A stretch of DNA of 64,000 bases from an uncultured Roseovarius sp. (GCA_951812895.1 OX638333.1:112366-176365), one strand, 5' to 3'; numbered from the stretch's first letter, positions 1,898 through 60,021 are shown. Numbers and translations: made by a program. Notes: generated by a model from the sequence alone, not told the origin.

Positions 1898-3230
1898 ACG
1901 GATATTCGGATCACAGTCAAAGGCAGTGGACGCCCCTCGCGTCGAACCTGTTGTTGCTGCCCCGGCAGCGCCAGAACGCCTGCCGATGAACCTGCAATCT
2001 TCGGCCAGTGTCGAGGAATGGCAAGAGTTCTTTGGCTTTCTGGGCAATGACACGGTGACGCGGGAATCTGCGATGAAGCTGACCGCCGTTTTTGGTTGCG
2101 TCTCACTTCTGGCGGGCACCATCGGAACCATGCCCGTGCGGGTTGTCAGGAAAGGCGAAAACGGCGGATCTGAAGAACATTCAGGACATGATGTGAATTG
2201 GCTTGTGCGTCACGAGCCGCATGAAGATTACACACCGGAAGTGTTCTTTGAGGGCATTGGGGTGCTGGCCTTTCTGGACGGCAACGGAGCGGCAGAAATT
2301 GTTCGCAATCGGCGCGGTGATGCACTTGGATTAAGGCCGATCCTAGAAGGCACGGTCAAACCATTTGAGCGCAAAGGTGGTCGCCTTGCCTACCGGATTT
2401 CCGAGAATGGCGACACCTACGGTCGGGATAAAGACGACATTTTGCATTTTCGCGGATCTGCAACCATGAGCCGGTTCGAAGCGCTTTCACCCTTGAAGTG
2501 TTTTGGCCGGACCATCGGCATTGGGCTTGATGCGGATGAATACGCGCGCCTCTTCTACAAACAGGGAGGCACCCCCAGCGGTTACATTACCTATGAAGGT
2601 AAAGTTGACGAGAACATGGCTGATGAGGTTCGGCAATACTGGATGCGGAAAATGGCAGGGGTGCAAAATTCGCACTTGCCCGCCGTTTTGGCTGAAGGGG
2701 GTAAATTTGTCAGCCTTATGCAAGATCCCGAAACTGCCCAGCTTATGCAGTCCCGGTCTTTTCAGGTGTCTGATGTTGCCAGAGCGTTTGGTGTCCCGCC
2801 GCATCTGATCGGAGAGACAGAGAAGTCAACCAGCTGGGGCACGGGCATCAACGCGCAGACGGCCCAGTTTTACATTCTTGGATTGCGGAAACATGTGAAG
2901 CGGTTTGAAGGGGAGCTGACCAGAAAGTTGCTAACGCGCAAAGAGCGTGAGGGCGGCATGGAGATCAAGTTTAACCTTGATACATTACTGCGCGCTGATC
3001 TGGCGGCGCGGTACGACGCTCATAAAATTGCACTGGGTGGTACACAGCATCCGGGCTGGCGAACCGTCAATGAAACCCGCGAAATGGATGGTTTGCCCAA
3101 ATCTGATGACCCCGCAGCGGATACGTTGTTTCGCCCTGTTCCTAAAGCGGGTGCTGAAAACGGGGATGGTGAGAATGGCGACGGGTCACAGGCACCGAAA
3201 TTTCAGACAACGCGAGAGGAAGTACAATGA
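1890..3230 (+). CDS. Portal protein (HK97 family)
   Basis: AVFGCVSLLAGTIGTMP, DILHFRG, VARAFGVPPHLIG, TVNETREMDGLP; follows terL. Confidence 0.93.
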   Translation: MFERIFGSQSKAVDAPRVEPVVAAPAAPERLPMNLQSSASVEEWQEFFGFLGNDTVTRESAMKLTAVFGCVSLLAGTIGTMPVRVVRKGENGGSEEHSGHDVNWLVRHEPHEDYTPEVFFEGIGVLAFLDGNGAAEIVRNRRGDALGLRPILEGTVKPFERKGGRLAYRISENGDTYGRDKDDILHFRGSATMSRFEALSPLKCFGRTIGIGLDADEYARLFYKQGGTPSGYITYEGKVDENMADEVRQYWMRKMAGVQNSHLPAVLAEGGKFVSLMQDPETAQLMQSRSFQVSDVARAFGVPPHLIGETEKSTSWGTGINAQTAQFYILGLRKHVKRFEGELTRKLLTRKEREGGMEIKFNLDTLLRADLAARYDAHKIALGGTQHPGWRTVNETREMDGLPKSDDPAADTLFRPVPKAGAENGDGENGDGSQAPKFQTTREEVQ

Positions 3231-24282: not shown

Positions 24283-24297
24283 GTTCGCGCGTTGTTC
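24283..24297. promoter_or_regulatory. Alphaproteobacterial LexA box-like motif
   Basis: GTTC-GCGCGTT-GTTC (GTTC-N7-GTTC). Confidence 0.4.
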
Positions 24298-24757: not shown

Positions 24758-26347
24758 ATGAACTTCATCGCGTTAGAATCAGAACAGAAGCTACGCGGTG
24801 GATACTACACGCCTGCCGACCTCGCTAATTTCTTAACCCGATGGATAGCTCCGAGCGCCGGAACCCGCGTGCTTGAACCAAGCTGCGGAGATGGCGCATT
24901 TTTCCCAACGCTTGATGGATCTGACGCAACAGTTACGGCATTCGAACTATCGCCAGAAGAAGCTGCAAAGGCTTCGGCGCGTGGTCTGCCGGATTGTACC
25001 GTTCACAATCGAGATTTCTTAAGTTGGGCGCTGGCAGCGGAACGCGGCCAGTTCGATGCGGTCATCGGCAACCCACCGTTTGTCAAGTACCAGTATCTCC
25101 CGGCGGACTTCCAAGCCAACGCTGAACGTGTGTTTGCGCGTCTCGGCTGCAAATTCACGAAACACACTAATGCATGGGTTCCTTTCATTCTCGCGTCGAT
25201 GGACCTGCTGCGCCCCGGTGGGCGGCTAGCGATGGTGGTTCCGTCCGAGATCGTGCACGTTATGCACGCGCAATCCTTGCGAACCTATCTCGGACAGCAA
25301 TGTCGCCGCATAGTGATCGTAGACCCTCAAGAAATCTGGTTCGAAGGCACCTTGCAGGGCGCGGTCCTGCTGATGGCCGAGAAGAAGGCTGCGCCTGATG
25401 TCCACGGCGAAGGGCTAGGCATTCACCGCGTAGCCGGTCGCGACTTCCTACGCGAAGACCCAGAAGCAGTTTTCAACACACCCCGAGCGATCAACGGAAA
25501 GACTGTTCAAGGCAAGTGGACACGCGCACTGGTGCCCACCGCGACTCTATCCACCCTCGAAGCCTTAGAAGAAGATTCCAGATTCTGCCGCTTCGACGAT
25601 GCCGCTAAAGTGGACGTGGGCATAGTCACGGGTGCCAACAAGTTTTTCCTCGTCACAGACGACGTTGTGCGACAGAACGGACTGGAAAAGTGGGCGCATC
25701 CAATGTTTGGGCGCAGCGACCATTGCCCCGGAGTGATCTATGATAACGCGCAGCACGCCCGCAATGCGGCTACAGGCAAGCCTACGAACTTCCTGTGGCT
25801 CGACAGTTCGGTTATGGATAGTGCCAAAGGTCGCGCTTACATCGCTTCGGGCGAACACGAAAAGCTCCACGAGCGATATAAATGCCGTATCCGAAAGCCG
25901 TGGTACACGGTGCCTTCGGTGCACGCTACCGAGGTTGGAATGCTCAAGCGCAGCCACAACACGCCCCGCCTAATTCATAATCGTGTCGGGGCCTACACAA
26001 CCGATACCGCCTATCGCATTCGTGCCCTTCGCGGTACAGCGGATGCTTTGGTTTATGGCTTCTACAACAGCCTGACCGCCCTCAGCGCGGAACTGGAAGG
26101 GCGTCACTATGGCGGTGGTGTTTTAGAGCTGGTGCCCAGCGAAATTGAGAAGCTGCTGTTACCTGCACCCGAAGGCATCTCCCCAAATGTTGAGAAATTG
26201 GACCGTATGGTGCGCGAAGATTCTGTGGCGGACACGCTGGAAGTGCAATCAGAAGATGTGCTTGGTGCTCTGACTAAGGCTGAACAGATGGACCTGCTTG
26301 CCGCTTGGGCTACTCTACGCGACCGCCGCCACCGAATTCCTTCTTAG
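24758..26347 (+). CDS. Type II-like amino DNA methyltransferase (gamma class)
   Basis: KLRGGYYTP, VLEPSCGDGAF, IGNPPF, GRHYGGGVLELVPSE. Confidence 0.9.
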   Translation: MNFIALESEQKLRGGYYTPADLANFLTRWIAPSAGTRVLEPSCGDGAFFPTLDGSDATVTAFELSPEEAAKASARGLPDCTVHNRDFLSWALAAERGQFDAVIGNPPFVKYQYLPADFQANAERVFARLGCKFTKHTNAWVPFILASMDLLRPGGRLAMVVPSEIVHVMHAQSLRTYLGQQCRRIVIVDPQEIWFEGTLQGAVLLMAEKKAAPDVHGEGLGIHRVAGRDFLREDPEAVFNTPRAINGKTVQGKWTRALVPTATLSTLEALEEDSRFCRFDDAAKVDVGIVTGANKFFLVTDDVVRQNGLEKWAHPMFGRSDHCPGVIYDNAQHARNAATGKPTNFLWLDSSVMDSAKGRAYIASGEHEKLHERYKCRIRKPWYTVPSVHATEVGMLKRSHNTPRLIHNRVGAYTTDTAYRIRALRGTADALVYGFYNSLTALSAELEGRHYGGGVLELVPSEIEKLLLPAPEGISPNVEKLDRMVREDSVADTLEVQSEDVLGALTKAEQMDLLAAWATLRDRRHRIPS

Positions 26348-44081: not shown

Positions 44082-45224
44082 TTAACCCATCAATGTCGCG
44101 ATGTGGGCAGGCTTGATAGCCTTTTGACCCCAAGCCAAACGAACATGGATGACGTTCTGCAAGAACTGCTTGTACAGCGCCAGCTCGAACGCGAGACCGG
44201 AACGTTCATCCACAATCGTGGTTACATCAACCGCCATGTCGCCGCCGTCCGGCATCGCAGGCGCCCGAGTTGCCAGCACGATTGCTGAACGTGCGAAGGC
44301 CACGTTCGGCGTGTAGCTGTTGCCTACCGTAATCGTAGCGTTGTTGGCCGGAGCGGCCTGAAGACCTGGCTTGCCAATATTGATCGGCGTGGTCGACAGA
44401 TCGGCATTGACGACATATTTGCGAGTGTCACCCGCAAAGGTAACAATGTCGCCCGCCAGAACAGTGCCCGAACCAGTGTCGACCGGGACAGCGGTAGTAC
44501 CCACCGCGGGCGTACCATTCACCAGATAACCGGTGCCAGTACCCTTGGTGTGGACCGTGATCGGATCGGAATGGCGAACGGCCATTTTCATGATGCGATC
44601 CGTCATGCCGTTGCGAAGCATGTCGTCAGAACCGGCCTCGTTTACCTTGAACAATCCCGATTGCTTGCCGCGCAAGTTGCCGATGGCAGCGTGACCGAGA
44701 ACAATTTGGAGATCGTTGGTGGGCGCACCATTTTCTTCCAGCACACCCAGGACATTCGCGAAGTCGGTCATGTCTGCGGCGGTGCCAAACGGTGTACTAC
44801 CGGCCGTACCTACAGCACGAGAAGCGCTGTTATAGGCTTCGGTGTGCAGATCGCTTTCGATCTCATTCACCAAAGACCGCATGCCCTGAAACGCACGATC
44901 CGCCATGATGGTCGAGAAGGTGCCGGCATTGGAAAGGCCGCGCGTTTCTTCACCACTGAAACGGATCGGAACGTGTTTGGATTTTGTGATAGCAACCGGG
45001 ATACCCTCGGTCGTATTGTCGCCGGTATCCGGTGCGTTCACCGCAGCCGTGTTATTGGCCGATGTTTCGGCGGATGTTTCCGGCACATAGACCGTTTGAC
45101 CGATGGCCGCACGCGCAACGTCAGAGTCGCGGTTCACCGCCGGGATGTAGCCCGTCAGTTCACGAGAAACCACATCAAGGGCCTCGTAGAAATCCGGAAG
45201 CAGATTTGTAAGTGTGTTAGCCAT
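44082..45224 (-). CDS. Major capsid protein (P22 coat-like)
   Basis: MANTLTNLLPDFYEALDVVSREL; Ig-like insertion; ARSAIVLATRAP. Confidence 0.9.
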   Translation of the reverse strand: MANTLTNLLPDFYEALDVVSRELTGYIPAVNRDSDVARAAIGQTVYVPETSAETSANNTAAVNAPDTGDNTTEGIPVAITKSKHVPIRFSGEETRGLSNAGTFSTIMADRAFQGMRSLVNEIESDLHTEAYNSASRAVGTAGSTPFGTAADMTDFANVLGVLEENGAPTNDLQIVLGHAAIGNLRGKQSGLFKVNEAGSDDMLRNGMTDRIMKMAVRHSDPITVHTKGTGTGYLVNGTPAVGTTAVPVDTGSGTVLAGDIVTFAGDTRKYVVNADLSTTPINIGKPGLQAAPANNATITVGNSYTPNVAFARSAIVLATRAPAMPDGGDMAVDVTTIVDERSGLAFELALYKQFLQNVIHVRLAWGQKAIKPAHIATLMG

Positions 45225-55826: not shown

Positions 55827-56000
55827 TCAGCCCTCCAGTTTGTGTGTGAAATTGAGTTGGCGGGCGCGGTTCAATAGTGCTGCACGCTCGCCGTAGAATT
55901 CTTGACGGTGCTTGCCTAATGATCCCCACCAGCCTTGTAGTTCTTCGCGGGGAAGGCATCGAATGTGGGTTAGCTTTTGTTCGCGTTCTTCGGGGGTCAT
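55827..56000 (-). CDS. Hypothetical 57-aa protein
   Basis: MTPEERERKLTHIRCLP...; ATGA-coupled to MTase stop. Confidence 0.55.
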   Translation of the reverse strand: MTPEEREQKLTHIRCLPREELQGWWGSLGKHRQEFYGERAALLNRARQLNFTHKLEG

Positions 56001-56983
56001 GCTGCCCTCTCTGCTTCGAGAATGGCGTGACCGATCATTTCAGGTATTTGGGGAACTACTGCGTTTCCACATCCTTTAAGTCTGTCCACCCTATCGGGAA
56101 CCCCATGAGCCACTCGACCCACGTTGGGTTCAGTGAGCCAGATTCTCCCTGGGTGCTTATCCGCATCGCGTCTGGAAGAGAATTCATCCACCCACGGCCA
56201 GCTTCGTTCTGTGCTTTGAGCGTTCGTGCTCCCCTGTGCATTGACGCTGTCGGTGTCGGCCACATTTGCGGATGCAATACTTGAGCCGGCAAGCCGCTTC
56301 GATCGTCTGGTGCTAAACGTCCCCGTTTCTGACTGTCGTTCGCTCGAGGTGTGTGCCAAAACCGATGCGCTTGAGCCAGGTTCAGTCCGAACCCGTTTCC
56401 CGTATGGTGCTTGCCCTTCCGGATCGTCTCGGCCTTCACTTCCGCTTGACGTTCTGCAATTTGTTCGGGTGTCCAGTTTTCGCGGCTGTAGAACGTCACC
56501 GGAGTGGGCAACAGTCCAACATCTGTCACGCCTGTGGTGCGCGCCAACGGCGCAAGCTGGAATAACAAACGTCCGGCAGGCGTAACCTTGTCCCTCCAAG
56601 TCAGAAAGCACGTCATCGAGGCCCATGCTGATGTGCCCAGCAACGTTTTCTCCAATGACCCAAGAGGGCCTGAGTTCAGCCACGAGCCTATTAAATTCTG
56701 GCCAGAGGTGGCGGTCATCTTTCTCGCCGCGTCGCTTCCCGGCTGTGGAAAAGGGCTGGCATGGGTATCCTCCACAAATAAGGTCAACTGCTCCAACATC
56801 AGATCCTTTCAACTTGCGCACATCTTCAAAGCACCGAATTTCCGGCCAATGTTTTTTCAAAACCTTTCGGGGGAATTCTTCGATTTCGCAAAACGCTACG
56901 GTTTCAAAGCCCCCTGTGCGTTCAAGGCCAAGGCTGAAACCTCCAATTCCTGAGAATAAATCGAGAACCTTTAGCTTGGTCAC
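55997..56983 (-). CDS. dcm: C5-cytosine DNA methyltransferase, alpha polypeptide
   Basis: FSGIGG, GGYPCQPFS, ENV, HRRDRCW, GNAVVP; motif IX not seen. Confidence 0.9.
   Translation of the reverse strand: MTKLKVLDLFSGIGGFSLGLERTGGFETVAFCEIEEFPRKVLKKHWPEIRCFEDVRKLKGSDVGAVDLICGGYPCQPFSTAGKRRGEKDDRHLWPEFNRLVAELRPSWVIGENVAGHISMGLDDVLSDLEGQGYACRTFVIPACAVGAHHRRDRCWTVAHSGDVLQPRKLDTRTNCRTSSGSEGRDDPEGQAPYGKRVRTEPGSSASVLAHTSSERQSETGTFSTRRSKRLAGSSIASANVADTDSVNAQGSTNAQSTERSWPWVDEFSSRRDADKHPGRIWLTEPNVGRVAHGVPDRVDRLKGCGNAVVPQIPEMIGHAILEAERAA
56056..56799 (-). CDS. Nested alternate-frame beta polypeptide of the C5 methyltransferase
   Basis: 247-aa same-strand ORF in another frame with AAGGA RBS; ends LNPTWVEWLMGFPIGWTD (motif IX-like); xPTP repeats. 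Confidence 0.75.
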   Translation of the reverse strand: MLEQLTLFVEDTHASPFPQPGSDAARKMTATSGQNLIGSWLNSGPLGSLEKTLLGTSAWASMTCFLTWRDKVTPAGRLLFQLAPLARTTGVTDVGLLPTPVTFYSRENWTPEQIAERQAEVKAETIRKGKHHTGNGFGLNLAQAHRFWHTPRANDSQKRGRLAPDDRSGLPAQVLHPQMWPTPTASMHRGARTLKAQNEAGRGWMNSLPDAMRISTQGESGSLNPTWVEWLMGFPIGWTDLKDVETQ

Positions 56984-57157
56984 ACCCCTACCTCCCGAAA
57001 AGACCGACGCCACAAAGGACGCCGGTGAGTTTCAGGGAGGGACAGAAATTTACCCACTCACCCAAGCCTCCCGCCTGAATGTGTGAGGACTCTCCTTTTG
57101 ATGAGTTGACATGGTCTCGCTCATTTACCCCTGAGCGAATGGGGATTGCGGGTGTCA

Positions 57158-57479: not shown

Positions 57480-57590
57480 TCATTGTTTTTGCAATTTTTT
57501 GCAAATTTTGGAAACGCGAACGCCAATGGCTTTGAGAAGCCGAAAAAACGTGAACACAAACAGCTTTCCAAGCAGAACCAGCCATTTCAT
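57480..57590 (-). CDS. 36-aa hydrophobic/basic peptide
   Basis: MKWLVLLGKLFVFTFFRLLKAIGVRVSKICKKLQKQ; ATGA overlap with upstream gene. Confidence 0.45.
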   Translation of the reverse strand: MKWLVLLGKLFVFTFFRLLKAIGVRVSKICKKLQKQ

Positions 57591-57961
57591 CTATATCCCT
57601 CAATCCTGCGGGCAAACCGTTCGACACCGGCGAGATAAAGACCCACCGCTTTAACCGCCCATGAGGGCATGTCGCTTTCAAGCTGCATCCAGTTGATAAT
57701 TGTGCGCGGGCTGACACCTAAAGCACGACTGCCCTTCTTGGCGATTTCGTCTTGTGTGCGCCCATCAAACGCCCTGCGAAGCTTCTCAGCATCTTCCCTT
57801 CGGGACTTGAGCCGAAAATCCACGTTCGATTTTGCAAGATTTTGCAAGCCTTTCCTCCTATATTCATCACGTGGTTTACGAGTTGAATGGTTTGGAGAAA
57901 GGGCGCGGGCCGGGGCTGGATAAGCTCCGGTCCTTGCGTGTGGGTCAGGAGCCATTGTCAT
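57587..57961 (-). CDS. CII-position HTH regulator
   Basis: RTQDEIAKKGSRALGVSPRTIINWM; follows cro. Confidence 0.65.
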   Translation of the reverse strand: MTMAPDPHARTGAYPAPARALSPNHSTRKPRDEYRRKGLQNLAKSNVDFRLKSRREDAEKLRRAFDGRTQDEIAKKGSRALGVSPRTIINWMQLESDMPSWAVKAVGLYLAGVERFARRIEGYR

Positions 57962-58170
57962 TGAAACGACCCTGCGTTTTCCGATTTGGCCCCTTCGAGT
58001 GAGATGTAACTCAAAACCCTTTCACCAACAGCGAAGGTGCAACTTTGTCCGGCTTTGAGCCTCGAATAGAGTCGACTGTTCCCAACGGCCCGGCCCGTTA
58101 CCGTAGCTGGCGCGATGCCTCGCTCAGTAGCAAAGCTTTCGATTTTCTCTACAAGTTCGTCTTGGGTCAT
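57958..58170 (-). CDS. cro: Cro-like regulator
   Basis: 70-aa HTH (IAPATVTGRAVGNSRLYSRL) divergent from repressor. Confidence 0.75.
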   Translation of the reverse strand: MTQDELVEKIESFATERGIAPATVTGRAVGNSRLYSRLKAGQSCTFAVGERVLSYISLEGAKSENAGSFQ

Positions 58171-58181
58171 GCACCTATTAG

Positions 58182-58217
58182 GGACTTTTGTCCATATTTG
58201 TCAAGGGACTTTTGTCA
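58182..58217. promoter_or_regulatory. OR-like operators GGAC-N4-GTCC
   Basis: GGACTTTTGTCC at 58182-58193 and GGACTTTTGTCA at 58206-58217; TTGACA copies on - strand. Confidence 0.75.
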
Positions 58218-58255
58218 ACTTTCGCAAACCGAGCCACATGGGTAAAAATGTCCCC

Positions 58256-58597
58256 ATGTCAAAATCGTTTCGCGAAGCCTATTTAGCCGCAAAAGCCGCC
58301 TCGGGGTTTTCCGCCGCAAAAATTGCGAAGGGCGCGGGCGTTTCTGAGGAACAGCTAAAAAAACTAGCGCAAAGGGAGACCGCTTCTACAAATGTAGATG
58401 ATGCTGTGAAAATAGCGGTGTTCTTTGGAGTGATTGTCGAGGAATTCATTGACGGTCGGAAAGTGACAGCCCCCGGTCGAATAGCTGAGATTTCAACAAG
58501 GCTGTCACCTGAGGGCCGTGCGCTCTTAGAAAGAGTTGCAGAAGCTCAACTTGTCTCTGAGGAGAATCAATCTCAGAAATCTCCCTCAGCCGATTAA
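58256..58597 (+). CDS. cI: CI-like XRE repressor without S24 peptidase domain
   Basis: SAAKIAKGAGVSEEQLKKL..STNVDDAVKIA; about 113 aa; alternative ATG at 58238. Confidence 0.8.
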   Translation: MSKSFREAYLAAKAASGFSAAKIAKGAGVSEEQLKKLAQRETASTNVDDAVKIAVFFGVIVEEFIDGRKVTAPGRIAEISTRLSPEGRALLERVAEAQLVSEENQSQKSPSAD

Positions 58598-58616
58598 TTA
58601 TTTCACTATCCGTCAT
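58446..58616 (-). CDS. Unannotated 56-aa ORF antisense to cI 3' end (candidate antirepressor)
   Basis: GAGGGG-N7-ATG; MTDSEIINRLREISEIDSPQRQVELLQLFLRAHGPQVTALLKSQLFDRGLSLSDRQ; downstream of LexA-box promoter. Confidence 0.45.
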   Translation of the reverse strand: MTDSEIINRLREISEIDSPQRQVELLQLFLRAHGPQVTALLKSQLFDRGLSLSDRQ

Positions 58617-58723
58617 TCATCATCCCCTCGAAAAATTCAGCAGTGCAGCCGCATTAAGCGGAATTTTTCGTGAGACAGCTCAAGGTAAGAAACCGAACAA
58701 TTTTGGCCTCACATGGCATAAAA

Positions 58724-58752
58724 ACCATATAGGAACATAACAAGAACATCAA
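58724..58752 (-). promoter_or_regulatory. sigma70-like promoter with LexA box in spacer
   Basis: TTGATG-17-TATGGT; GAAC-ATAACAA-GAAC at 58733-58747. Confidence 0.65.
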
Positions 58753-58779
58753 CACCGCTACATGTGGTAGAGGTTCGCG

Positions 58780-58795
58780 CTAACCCTTTGTTAAC
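58780..58795. promoter_or_regulatory. CtrA box-like motif
   Basis: CTAA-CCCTTTG-TTAAC, one mismatch to TTAA-N7-TTAAC. Confidence 0.5.
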
Positions 58796-58968
58796 CACCT
58801 CCAACGGAGCCAAATGTGGTAGAATCACGTTCATATTGAGGCGACAGCATAAAAGGTAGTTTTAAAGCTTATACGCTCGCCTTTAAAGGAATCTACGCCC
58901 TAAGACTCTGCTTTAAAGCTAAATTTTGTTTGTGCGCTCACATTTTCGTGAGTGATTTGCAATAAAGT

Positions 58969-59019
58969 GGACATTAGTCCCTTTTTTATCTTGACGTGGA
59001 CTATTGTCCCTTTTATATT
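58969..59019 (+). promoter_or_regulatory. PL-like promoter with two OL operators
   Basis: GGACATTAGTCC at 58969-58980, GGACTATTGTCC at 58998-59009; TTGACG-17-TATATT. Confidence 0.8.
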
Positions 59020-59044
59020 ACTCCCAACACACGGGAGAAACACC

Positions 59045-59293
59045 ATGCACCTTGCGCCTCAGAAACTCCACGCAACCAGTGACCAAATCGCAGCGCTTTT
59101 GCGCCACGCCAGAAACACAAGCGAAGGCTCACACCCGACATTCGGAAACCACGTTGCTGACGTGCTTGATTGCCTCGTTGCTGTGATCTGGAGCGATGAC
59201 GAGGAAGACAAAGCCTCTGCCGCAGAAGACCTTGTGGACGCAGCAAGTGCCCTGCGTGACCGTGCTGATATCGAAATGCAGGAGGCCGCGTAA
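59045..59293 (+). CDS. Hypothetical early protein
   Basis: First ORF after PL with GGGAG RBS. Confidence 0.6.
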   Translation: MHLAPQKLHATSDQIAALLRHARNTSEGSHPTFGNHVADVLDCLVAVIWSDDEEDKASAAEDLVDAASALRDRADIEMQEAA

Positions 59294-60021
59294 TGTCCAA
59301 GTTTGACGTTCTCAAAAGATTTACTGGCGAAGTTCTTTTCACGGCTGAGTTGGACTGTGACGACGATACACCAAGTTCCATAAGGCTAGGCCTTGCCGTT
59401 AAGTGGGGTGTTAAGAACAGAGCGAACCTCAACGGAGCGAACCTCGACGGAGCGAGCCTCTACAGAGCGAACCTCAACGGAGCGAACCTCGACGGAGCGA
59501 ACCTCAACGGAGCGAACCTCGACGGAGCGAACCTCAACGGAGCGAACCTCGACGGAGCGAACCTCAACGGAGCGAACCTCGACGGAGCGAACCTCAACGG
59601 AGCGAGCCTCTACAGAGCGAACCTCGACGGAGCGAGCCTCTACAGAGCGAACCTCAACGGAGCGAGCCTCTACAGAGCGAACCTCGACGGAGCGAGCCTC
59701 TACAGAGCGAACCTCAACGGAGCGAACCTCGACGGAGCGAGCCTCTACAGAGCGAGCCTCTACAGAGCGAGCGGAATCAACGAATACATCAAATGCATTC
59801 AGATAGATCAGTACCCGATCACCTACACCTCAGAGGTGATGCAGATCGGATGCCAAAGACATTTGATCGCGGAATGGCGTGGCTTTGACGATGAACGCAT
59901 TGCGGGAATGGATGGCAAAAAAGCCCTGCGGTTCTGGCGCAAGTACAAAGATTGGATATTTCAAACGATTGATCTTTGCCCCGCGACACCCACGAAAAAA
60001 AACGAAGCGGACGCAGCATGA
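59293..60021 (+). CDS. Pentapeptide-repeat protein
   Basis: 23 repeats of [15 protein letters not shown]; C-terminal [13 protein letters not shown]. Confidence 0.9.
59422..59766 (+). repeat. 23 x 15-nt coding tandem repeat
   Basis: Three exact units: GCGAACCTCAACGGA, GCGAACCTCGACGGA, GCGAGCCTCTACAGA. Confidence 0.95.

Follow-up and report, generated by a model that had tools for sequence, protein, structure and literature searches.

A prophage immunity region occupies positions 57958-59293 of the window, by which we mean the whole stretch of 64,000 nucleotides from an uncultured Roseovarius sp. that was analysed. Its sequence has the layout of a region in which one repressor controls two early promoters. 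The prophage is of the lambdoid type, and its host is Rhodobacteraceae-like. The features of the region are collected in Table 1.

The repressor gene, on the plus strand, sits between the leftward and the rightward early genes. The leftward operon on the minus strand begins with a 70-aa gene, whose product is Cro/Apl-like by position. It continues with genes for a C5 DNA methylase, an HNH endonuclease and a DnaB-type helicase, which are followed by structural genes. The rightward genes on the plus strand encode, among others, a pentapeptide-repeat protein, a Gam/Gp157-like protein and a Rad52-like recombinase. The gene for the C5 cytosine methylase (55997-57013, minus strand, 338 aa) gives a full-length Pfam match, and the 247-aa ORF that lies within it on the same strand in another frame (56056-56799) probably results from composition. 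The pentapeptide-repeat protein is the product of the second rightward gene (59293-60021, plus strand); it has 242 aa (Pfam E = 1e-33) and consists of tandem ANL(N/D)G(A)(N/S)L units that are nearly perfect. The position of this gene suggests an early role in host takeover or anti-defence.

The perfect palindrome GGAC-N4-GTCC occurs three times in the 64 kb (58182, 58969 and 58998), each time within the immunity region, and a copy with one mismatch is found at 58206. Equivalents of the left operator sites are present in related loci. The rightward early promoter, TTGACG-17-TATATT at 58991-59019, is the only strong sigma-70-type promoter found by the scan, and the same arrangement of right operators and promoter is seen in the relatives L001, L005, L007 and L011. 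The 240 bp between the antisense promoter described below and the right operators contain, at 58760-58950, a repeated ATGTGGTAGA (58764-58773 and 58815-58824) together with two palindromes, CCTTTAAAGG (58881-58890) and GCTTTAAAGC (58908-58917). The matching region of L013, L015 and L016 has TGGTAG-like motifs too. These repeats and palindromes may be sites for another regulator. A blastn search of 57500-59400 against 50,697 phage records gave no match, Rfam at the gathering threshold found no RNA family in the whole window, and neither the window nor four relatives contain a tRNA or tmRNA according to ARAGORN.

Table 1. Features of the immunity region, with positions counted from the first letter of the window
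Feature	Position	Strand	Description
70-aa gene, first of the leftward early operon	57958..58170	-	conserved partner of cI; co-oriented with the small ORF
Left operator pair GGACTTTTGTCC, GGACTTTTGTCA	58182..58217	.	divergent promoter region of cI and the leftward 70-aa gene
cI-like repressor gene	58256..58597	+	113 aa; HTH domain and two-helix tail
Small protein gene, candidate antirepressor	58446..58616	-	56 aa; overlaps the cI 3' end by 152 nt
Shine-Dalgarno-like GAGGGG	58624..58629	-	followed after 7 nt by the small-ORF ATG at 58616
Inverted repeat GAAAAATTC...GAATTTTTC	58629..58670	.	10-bp stem; 58670-58661 pairs with 58638-58629
Antisense promoter	58724..58752	-	-35 TTGATG (58752-58747), 17-nt spacer, -10 TATGGT (58729-58724)
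Candidate LexA operator GTTCTTGTTATGTTC	58733..58747	-	GTTC-N7-GTTC direct repeat within the antisense promoter
Right operator pair GGACATTAGTCC, GGACTATTGTCC	58969..59019	+	overlaps the rightward early promoter

Two forms of one repressor family

In a domain search, the cI-like protein gave sub-threshold matches to HTH_3 and HTH_26 only, and no match to the S24 autopeptidase domain was found in its 113 aa. In the AF2 model, a five-helix HTH domain precedes two C-terminal helices (72-82 and 85-107). The initial annotation had described a cI with an HTH, a helical tail and no S24 domain, and both the domain search and the model bear this out. An exact look-up of the 113-aa form found no record in the public protein collection. 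The collection holds the protein as a 142-aa product (P0001) with a start 87 nt upstream, at 58172, inside the operator region. Comparison with the homologs, whose invariant M1 matches position 58256, shows that the latter is the true start of cI.

Relatives were gathered by pattern scans of genomes, viral contigs and metagenomes, which gave about 90 loci with 65 distinct repressors. Few of the relatives are annotated, and the named hosts are all Rhodobacteraceae (Roseovarius, Tritonibacter, Paracoccus and a Rhodobacteraceae bacterium). The repressors come in two forms. Long forms account for 24 of the 65; they are 191-218 aa in length, and nearly all have a clear S24 domain with the GDSMEP motif. 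The 41 short forms, including that of the window, have 99-122 aa and a short helical tail. The HTH domain is common to the long and short forms, and so is the layout of operators and promoters in the immunity region. The N-terminal HTH of the window's repressor is 59-61% identical to those of the S24-bearing repressors of L002 and L003. With respect to the S24 (LexA/lambda CI-type) repressors, the window's protein thus has a homologous HTH within the same layout, and two helices instead of the peptidase. Because the short helical tail replaces the S24 domain, RecA cannot directly inactivate this repressor, judged from its sequence.

A candidate LexA box in a predicted antisense promoter

Downstream of cI, a predicted promoter on the minus strand points back into the repressor gene, and its transcript is expected to start near 58717. 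The TTGATG-17-TATGGT hexamers and the perfect GTTC-N7-GTTC box between them, both named in the initial annotation, are present. The promoter scores 8 of 12, which is under the threshold of the scanner. GTTCTTGTTATGTTC overlaps the last base of the -35 and fills most of the spacer. The same exact box sequence and layout are also found in L013. GTTC-N7-GTTC is a documented LexA site of Alphaproteobacteria (PMC9578287, PMC3323433), as the annotation had correctly held, and the relatives of the locus are from Rhodobacteraceae. In the 64-kb window, three perfect boxes are observed and 2.76 are expected, and the box alone is not significant. The other two copies, with which the total count matches chance, are an intergenic one at 24283-24297 (plus strand), upstream of an M.Eco57I-like methyltransferase gene (24758-26347), and one inside the structural-gene region at 44459-44473 (minus strand).

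The related loci give a different measure. When counted from 30 nt before to 400 nt after the cI stop, a perfect box is found in 22 of the 41 short-form loci and in none of the 24 long, S24 forms (Fisher p = 2e-6). Its density is 0.80 per kb past the cI stop and 0.046 per kb elsewhere in the loci, a 17-fold difference, and in most loci the box is the sole perfect copy in about 5 kb. In 21 of 40 loci, a perfect box lies no more than 200 nt upstream of the start of the small ORF. The box always overlaps a promoter-like site antisense to cI, and this occurs in two architectures. The first, to which the window belongs, is seen in 15 loci; the repeat is oriented with transcription, and a TAT-type -10 comes 3 nt after it. 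A T precedes the box in 12 of the 15, and the first GTTC is often overlapped by a TTG-type -35. In the second (six loci), TTGAC(G/C) and a -10 are separated by 17 or 18 nt, and GAAC-N7-GAAC follows directly. The letters of the box spacer vary among loci, and the tetranucleotides and the geometry are constant. The distance from the box to the start of the small ORF is either 11-39 nt or 104-151 nt, with the window in the long-leader minority. The box at orthologous positions is therefore non-random by this comparison of sequences. The recurrence, the density and the fixed promoter geometry strengthen the reading of the box as a LexA site, and we infer that LexA binds the antisense promoter and that the promoter is SOS-induced.

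A perfect box is absent from 19 of the 41 short-form loci. Boxes with one mismatch are not enriched there (0.93 versus 0.77 per kb), so the box-less loci are not simply degenerate, and on these counts LexA control is not universal among short-form loci. L030, L075/L032, L058, L066, L085, L090 and others have no LexA box and retain the small ORF. In several box-less loci, the small ORF is close to the rightward operators and has a different promoter. A TTGACA-type promoter stands just before the ATG in L030 and L075, which suggests that the predicted mRNA is near-leaderless in these two. In the box-less phages, the small protein may be linked to some signal different from LexA.

The leader between the antisense promoter and the small ORF contains the inverted repeat and the Shine-Dalgarno-like motif of Table 1; the 10-bp stem and the GAGGGG-N7-ATG arrangement were both located where the initial annotation had placed them. 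The stem encloses a small hairpin, CCGC-N5-GCGG, that is followed on the plus strand by AATTTTT. This inner hairpin with its AATTTTT is likely the terminator of cI, and the terminator scan made no call at 58629..58670. On the minus strand, the stem is part of the small ORF's leader, where the pairing in the MFE fold reaches into part of the Shine-Dalgarno-like motif. Compared with shuffled sequences, the energy of the stem is not significant (z-scores -0.75 and -1.8). The stem is better read as the cI terminator region plus leader structure than as a conserved regulatory element. A small GC hairpin is likewise present in the leaders of the long-leader loci L013, L031 and L091. In L021, the leader between the LexA box and the small ORF (about 2900-3040) has a tRNA T-arm-like GGTTCGATTCC, and ARAGORN finds no tRNA there. 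An upstream ORF of 21-24 aa that had also been proposed for the window (58654-58755) is not supported; the letters for it are present, and its ATGs lie in the -10 hexamer or approximately at the predicted transcription start. The closest relative, L013, has an unrelated 9-codon ORF in its place, and the upstream ORF was rejected as a conserved feature.

The small antisense ORF

The small ORF runs opposite the 3' end of cI in the frame in which its codon position 1 faces codon position 1 of cI. The 56-aa helical ORF with a 152-nt overlap that the initial annotation had pointed out is present at 58616..58446. When folded from the single sequence, the AF2 model is a helical hairpin with helices 3-14 and 19-47 (pLDDT 88.8). 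The modelled protein is helical, soluble-looking and without a hydrophobic membrane segment. For the window alone, the antisense frame stays open in 41% of synonymous resamplings of the cI tail. Box, promoter and frame exceed chance only when related loci are compared.

The annotation had called for the conservation and dN/dS of the antisense frame to be examined and had named a broken frame in close homologs as a refuting result; its proposal withstood this test. Over the last 35 codons of cI, the frame is open in all 41 short-form loci, compared with 22.7 expected from synonymous resampling (P of all 41 being open = 5e-13). The other two antisense frames over the same stretch are open in 0 and 10 loci, and opposite the N-terminal half of cI the same frame is open in no more than 9-10 of the 41. 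Of the 41 loci, 38 have a start codon with Shine-Dalgarno-like purines past the cI stop. Among the exceptions, the ATG of L013 overlaps the cI stop, L014 has no convincing start, and L030 and L032 lack the purines. The starts align, 9-10 residues before a Leu that is conserved in 95% of the sequences. This Leu is encoded by all six of its codons (CTG, CTT, TTG, CTC, CTA and TTA). It lies outside cI in most loci; its codon position 2 is invariant and the mean pairwise difference at position 3 is 0.63.

Selection on the protein is specific to the frame. For the part of the ORF outside cI, the in-frame dN/dS is 0.33, and the shifted frames give 0.87 and 1.62, as measured from 12 disjoint sequence pairs with an alignment built in the tested frame, which somewhat favours that frame. 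Within the overlap, columns 100, 103 and 107 of the cI alignment, which face the core of the small protein, have d3 values of 0.18, 0.05 and 0.26 against d2 values of 0.68, 0.27 and 0.71, while d3 is never below 0.38 in non-overlapped cI. This abnormal conservation of cI third positions extends over the small-protein residues up to about 28. By this substitution pattern, selection opposite the core acts on the antisense frame. Past the core, the cI frame dominates and the residues of the small protein drift (pN/pS 1.19). Because constraint at the protein level is seen only in the N-terminal ~30 residues, the functional core of the predicted protein is located there. The two genes are complementary in this respect: the variable C-terminal tail of cI overlies the core of the small protein, and the C-terminal tail of the small protein overlies the conserved helices of cI. 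An HMM of the family finds the small protein at the expected site in 55 of 55 short-cI loci, in 0 of 29 S24 loci and nowhere else, an association that is partly built in because the small ORF overlaps the short cI tail. The comparative evidence identifies the antisense ORF as a real protein gene.

These statistics also decide against mere coincidence. That a box, promoter-like hexamers and an open frame fell together by chance in moderately GC-rich sequence would agree with the window's own box count, frame statistics and sub-threshold promoter, but it is very hard to credit, since the comparison of loci excludes coincidence for the family and since the window and L013 have exact box and layout in common.

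Proposed role of the small protein

Pfam and PHROG contain no family for the small protein. A profile built from 38 members had no match among 5.8 billion proteins, and the window's 56-aa protein gave one marginal, unaligned match among 1.84 billion representatives. Foldseek searches of PDB and BFVD returned insignificant helical matches only. Gene callers miss the small ORF as a result of its overlap with the repressor gene on the other strand. In the literature, no phage antirepressor was found described for Rhodobacteraceae or other Alphaproteobacteria, and no antirepressor gene was found that overlaps its repressor gene.

Temperate phages that pair non-cleavable repressors with LexA-controlled antirepressors, a precedent to which the initial annotation had appealed, are established for 186, N15 and the Gifsy phages (PMC3121763). 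Known examples of these antirepressors are Tum of 186, AntC of N15, GfoA, GfhA and GftA of the Gifsy phages and FsoA of Fels-1 (PMC3121763). Like those phages, the window's prophage has a repressor without an autocleavage domain (113 aa, no S24) and a small phage gene behind a promoter with a box for the host LexA, here a candidate box. The logic proposed for the window is also the same, namely that LexA cleavage leads to an antirepressor, which inactivates the repressor without proteolysis. The antirepressor genes of 186, N15 and the Gifsy phages, however, sit outside the respective immunity regions (PMC3121763), whereas the small ORF overlaps the repressor gene. Their hosts are gammaproteobacterial with a CTGT-N8-ACAG box, in contrast to the alphaproteobacterial GTTC-N7-GTTC. 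No similarity of sequence, family or fold between the small protein and known antirepressors, including those of 186, N15 and the Gifsy phages, was detected in the databases searched. We infer its activity as an antirepressor. The logic of LexA and antirepressor is thus known, and the protein family, the operator class used for this logic and the overlapping architecture are new.

Qtip-type proteins of the TF-smORF modules in Vibrio and Aeromonas phages offer another comparison (PMC10432266). They resemble the small protein in having ~55-80 residues without a recognisable domain. They inactivate their cognate cI without proteolysis (PMC10432266), an activity that is proposed here. The modules differ in that a phage transcription factor activates them independently of SOS in the presence of a cleavable cI, whereas the window has a LexA box and a non-cleavable cI. 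The divergent transcription factor gene of such modules is also missing from the window, where non-coding DNA and the rightward promoter lie upstream of the small ORF.

Our favoured reading is that the small protein is probably a LexA-controlled antirepressor of a new family, which is convergently embedded in the gene of its target. Since the same HTH is found with either an S24 domain or a LexA-gated small gene and never with both, the small protein would replace self-cleavage as the link to SOS, and the sensing of DNA damage would be delegated to the host LexA. The promoter with the candidate LexA operator, between the repressor gene and the rightward early promoter, points into cI. After DNA damage, LexA would be cleaved and this promoter would fire. 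The mRNA would encode the 56-residue two-helix protein, whose core is predicted to consist of an amphipathic helix, a turn and the start of helix 2. The protein would bind the repressor without cleaving it, and both early promoters would be freed. The transcript would also be antisense to the last 152 nt of cI and converge on cI transcription, which would probably lower cI expression; such interference is likely a side effect. Runs labelled as RNA under the same species label, when checked for the window's locus, do not contain it, and one RNA run for the relative L017 has a single 175-nt contig, over the 5' end of cI only.

If the antirepressor reading is correct, it explains how widespread prophages of marine Rhodobacteraceae with non-cleavable repressors sense DNA damage. 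It would also extend the strategy of LexA and antirepressor from enterobacterial phages to Alphaproteobacteria, with another operator and an unrelated protein. The family of about 40 members, none of which is in the 5.8-billion-protein collection, is in addition a clear, statistically supported case of a functional antisense-overlapping gene. The occurrence of the same DNA-binding domain with either S24 or a small-ORF module forms a natural contrast, by which the hypothesis is directly testable. The overlap suggests a way in which the immunity specificity of repressor and antirepressor is kept genetically linked.

A broader version of this reading, to which we give a minor share of the probability, is an SOS switch that arose in evolution as a substitute for self-cleavage and that combines three actions of one LexA-gated transcript: production of the new antirepressor, silencing of cI and read-through into the leftward lytic operon. 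In such a switch, pairing of the antisense transcript with cI mRNA and head-on transcription would silence cI. Through the overlap, repressor and antirepressor would be locked into one cassette, so that recombination could not part pairs of matching specificity. The idea of an inseparable cassette fits the cassette swap seen in the same strain, which is described at the end of this section.

It is rather unlikely that the RNA itself is the effector, as a LexA-controlled cis-antisense RNA that acts with convergent interference against cI, with the ORF being secondary. The promoter does converge on cI, its transcript would be complementary to at least 152 nt of cI mRNA, and the convergent antisense geometry is found in every short-form locus. 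There is a precedent in lambda, where a LexA site is present in the oop promoter and the OOP RNA lies antisense to a regulator gene's 3' end (PMC5869508, PMC2327240). As in the window, that promoter is within the immunity/early region and converges on a regulator that promotes lysogeny (PMC5869508, PMC2327240). However, OOP is a short non-coding RNA directed against cII, while the transcript proposed here has a conserved protein frame and targets cI. A short non-coding transcript with its own terminator was not found in the window: no terminator-like site that would define a short RNA is present on the minus strand within 57900-59100, and there is no Rfam match. The frame-specific selection, the aligned starts with Shine-Dalgarno-like motifs and the six-codon Leu show that a protein is selected. 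An RNA effect can coexist with the protein, but it cannot explain these signals.

Still less probable is a bypass promoter, from which the LexA-controlled transcript reads through cI into the leftward operon with the 70-aa gene and the replication genes. Lytic genes would then be expressed directly in spite of the repressor on the left operators. The leftward operon shares its strand with the small ORF, no terminator-like site was found between them, and the gene order is the same in the related loci inspected. This explanation leaves the conserved protein unaccounted for, however. The repressor at two operators and an active cI promoter would oppose read-through, and only one of the two early operons would be derepressed.

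LexA-regulated small proteins with other roles, such as SulA, SidA and TisB, are common. The small protein, which has no recognisable domain, could accordingly be SOS-induced as a division inhibitor, a toxin, an exclusion factor or a factor for the maintenance of lysogeny, and we regard such a role as improbable too. The small protein is found only with repressors that lack S24 and never with S24, and this distribution fits a replacement of self-cleavage. Its soluble-looking helical model, in which no membrane segment is predicted, also argues against these roles.

The genome run of the strain itself contains a second immunity cassette. A 1039-nt contig (depth 124) joins 57909-57963 to 59017-59046, and in it 954 different letters replace the 1053 of the window (57964-59016, depth 199). 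Since the flanks have a depth of ~395 and the joining contig carries other letters, the flanking phage DNA is present a second time in the strain or culture, there with a different immunity cassette. The exchanged cassette is bordered by the stop of the 70-aa gene on one side and by the -10 of the rightward promoter on the other.
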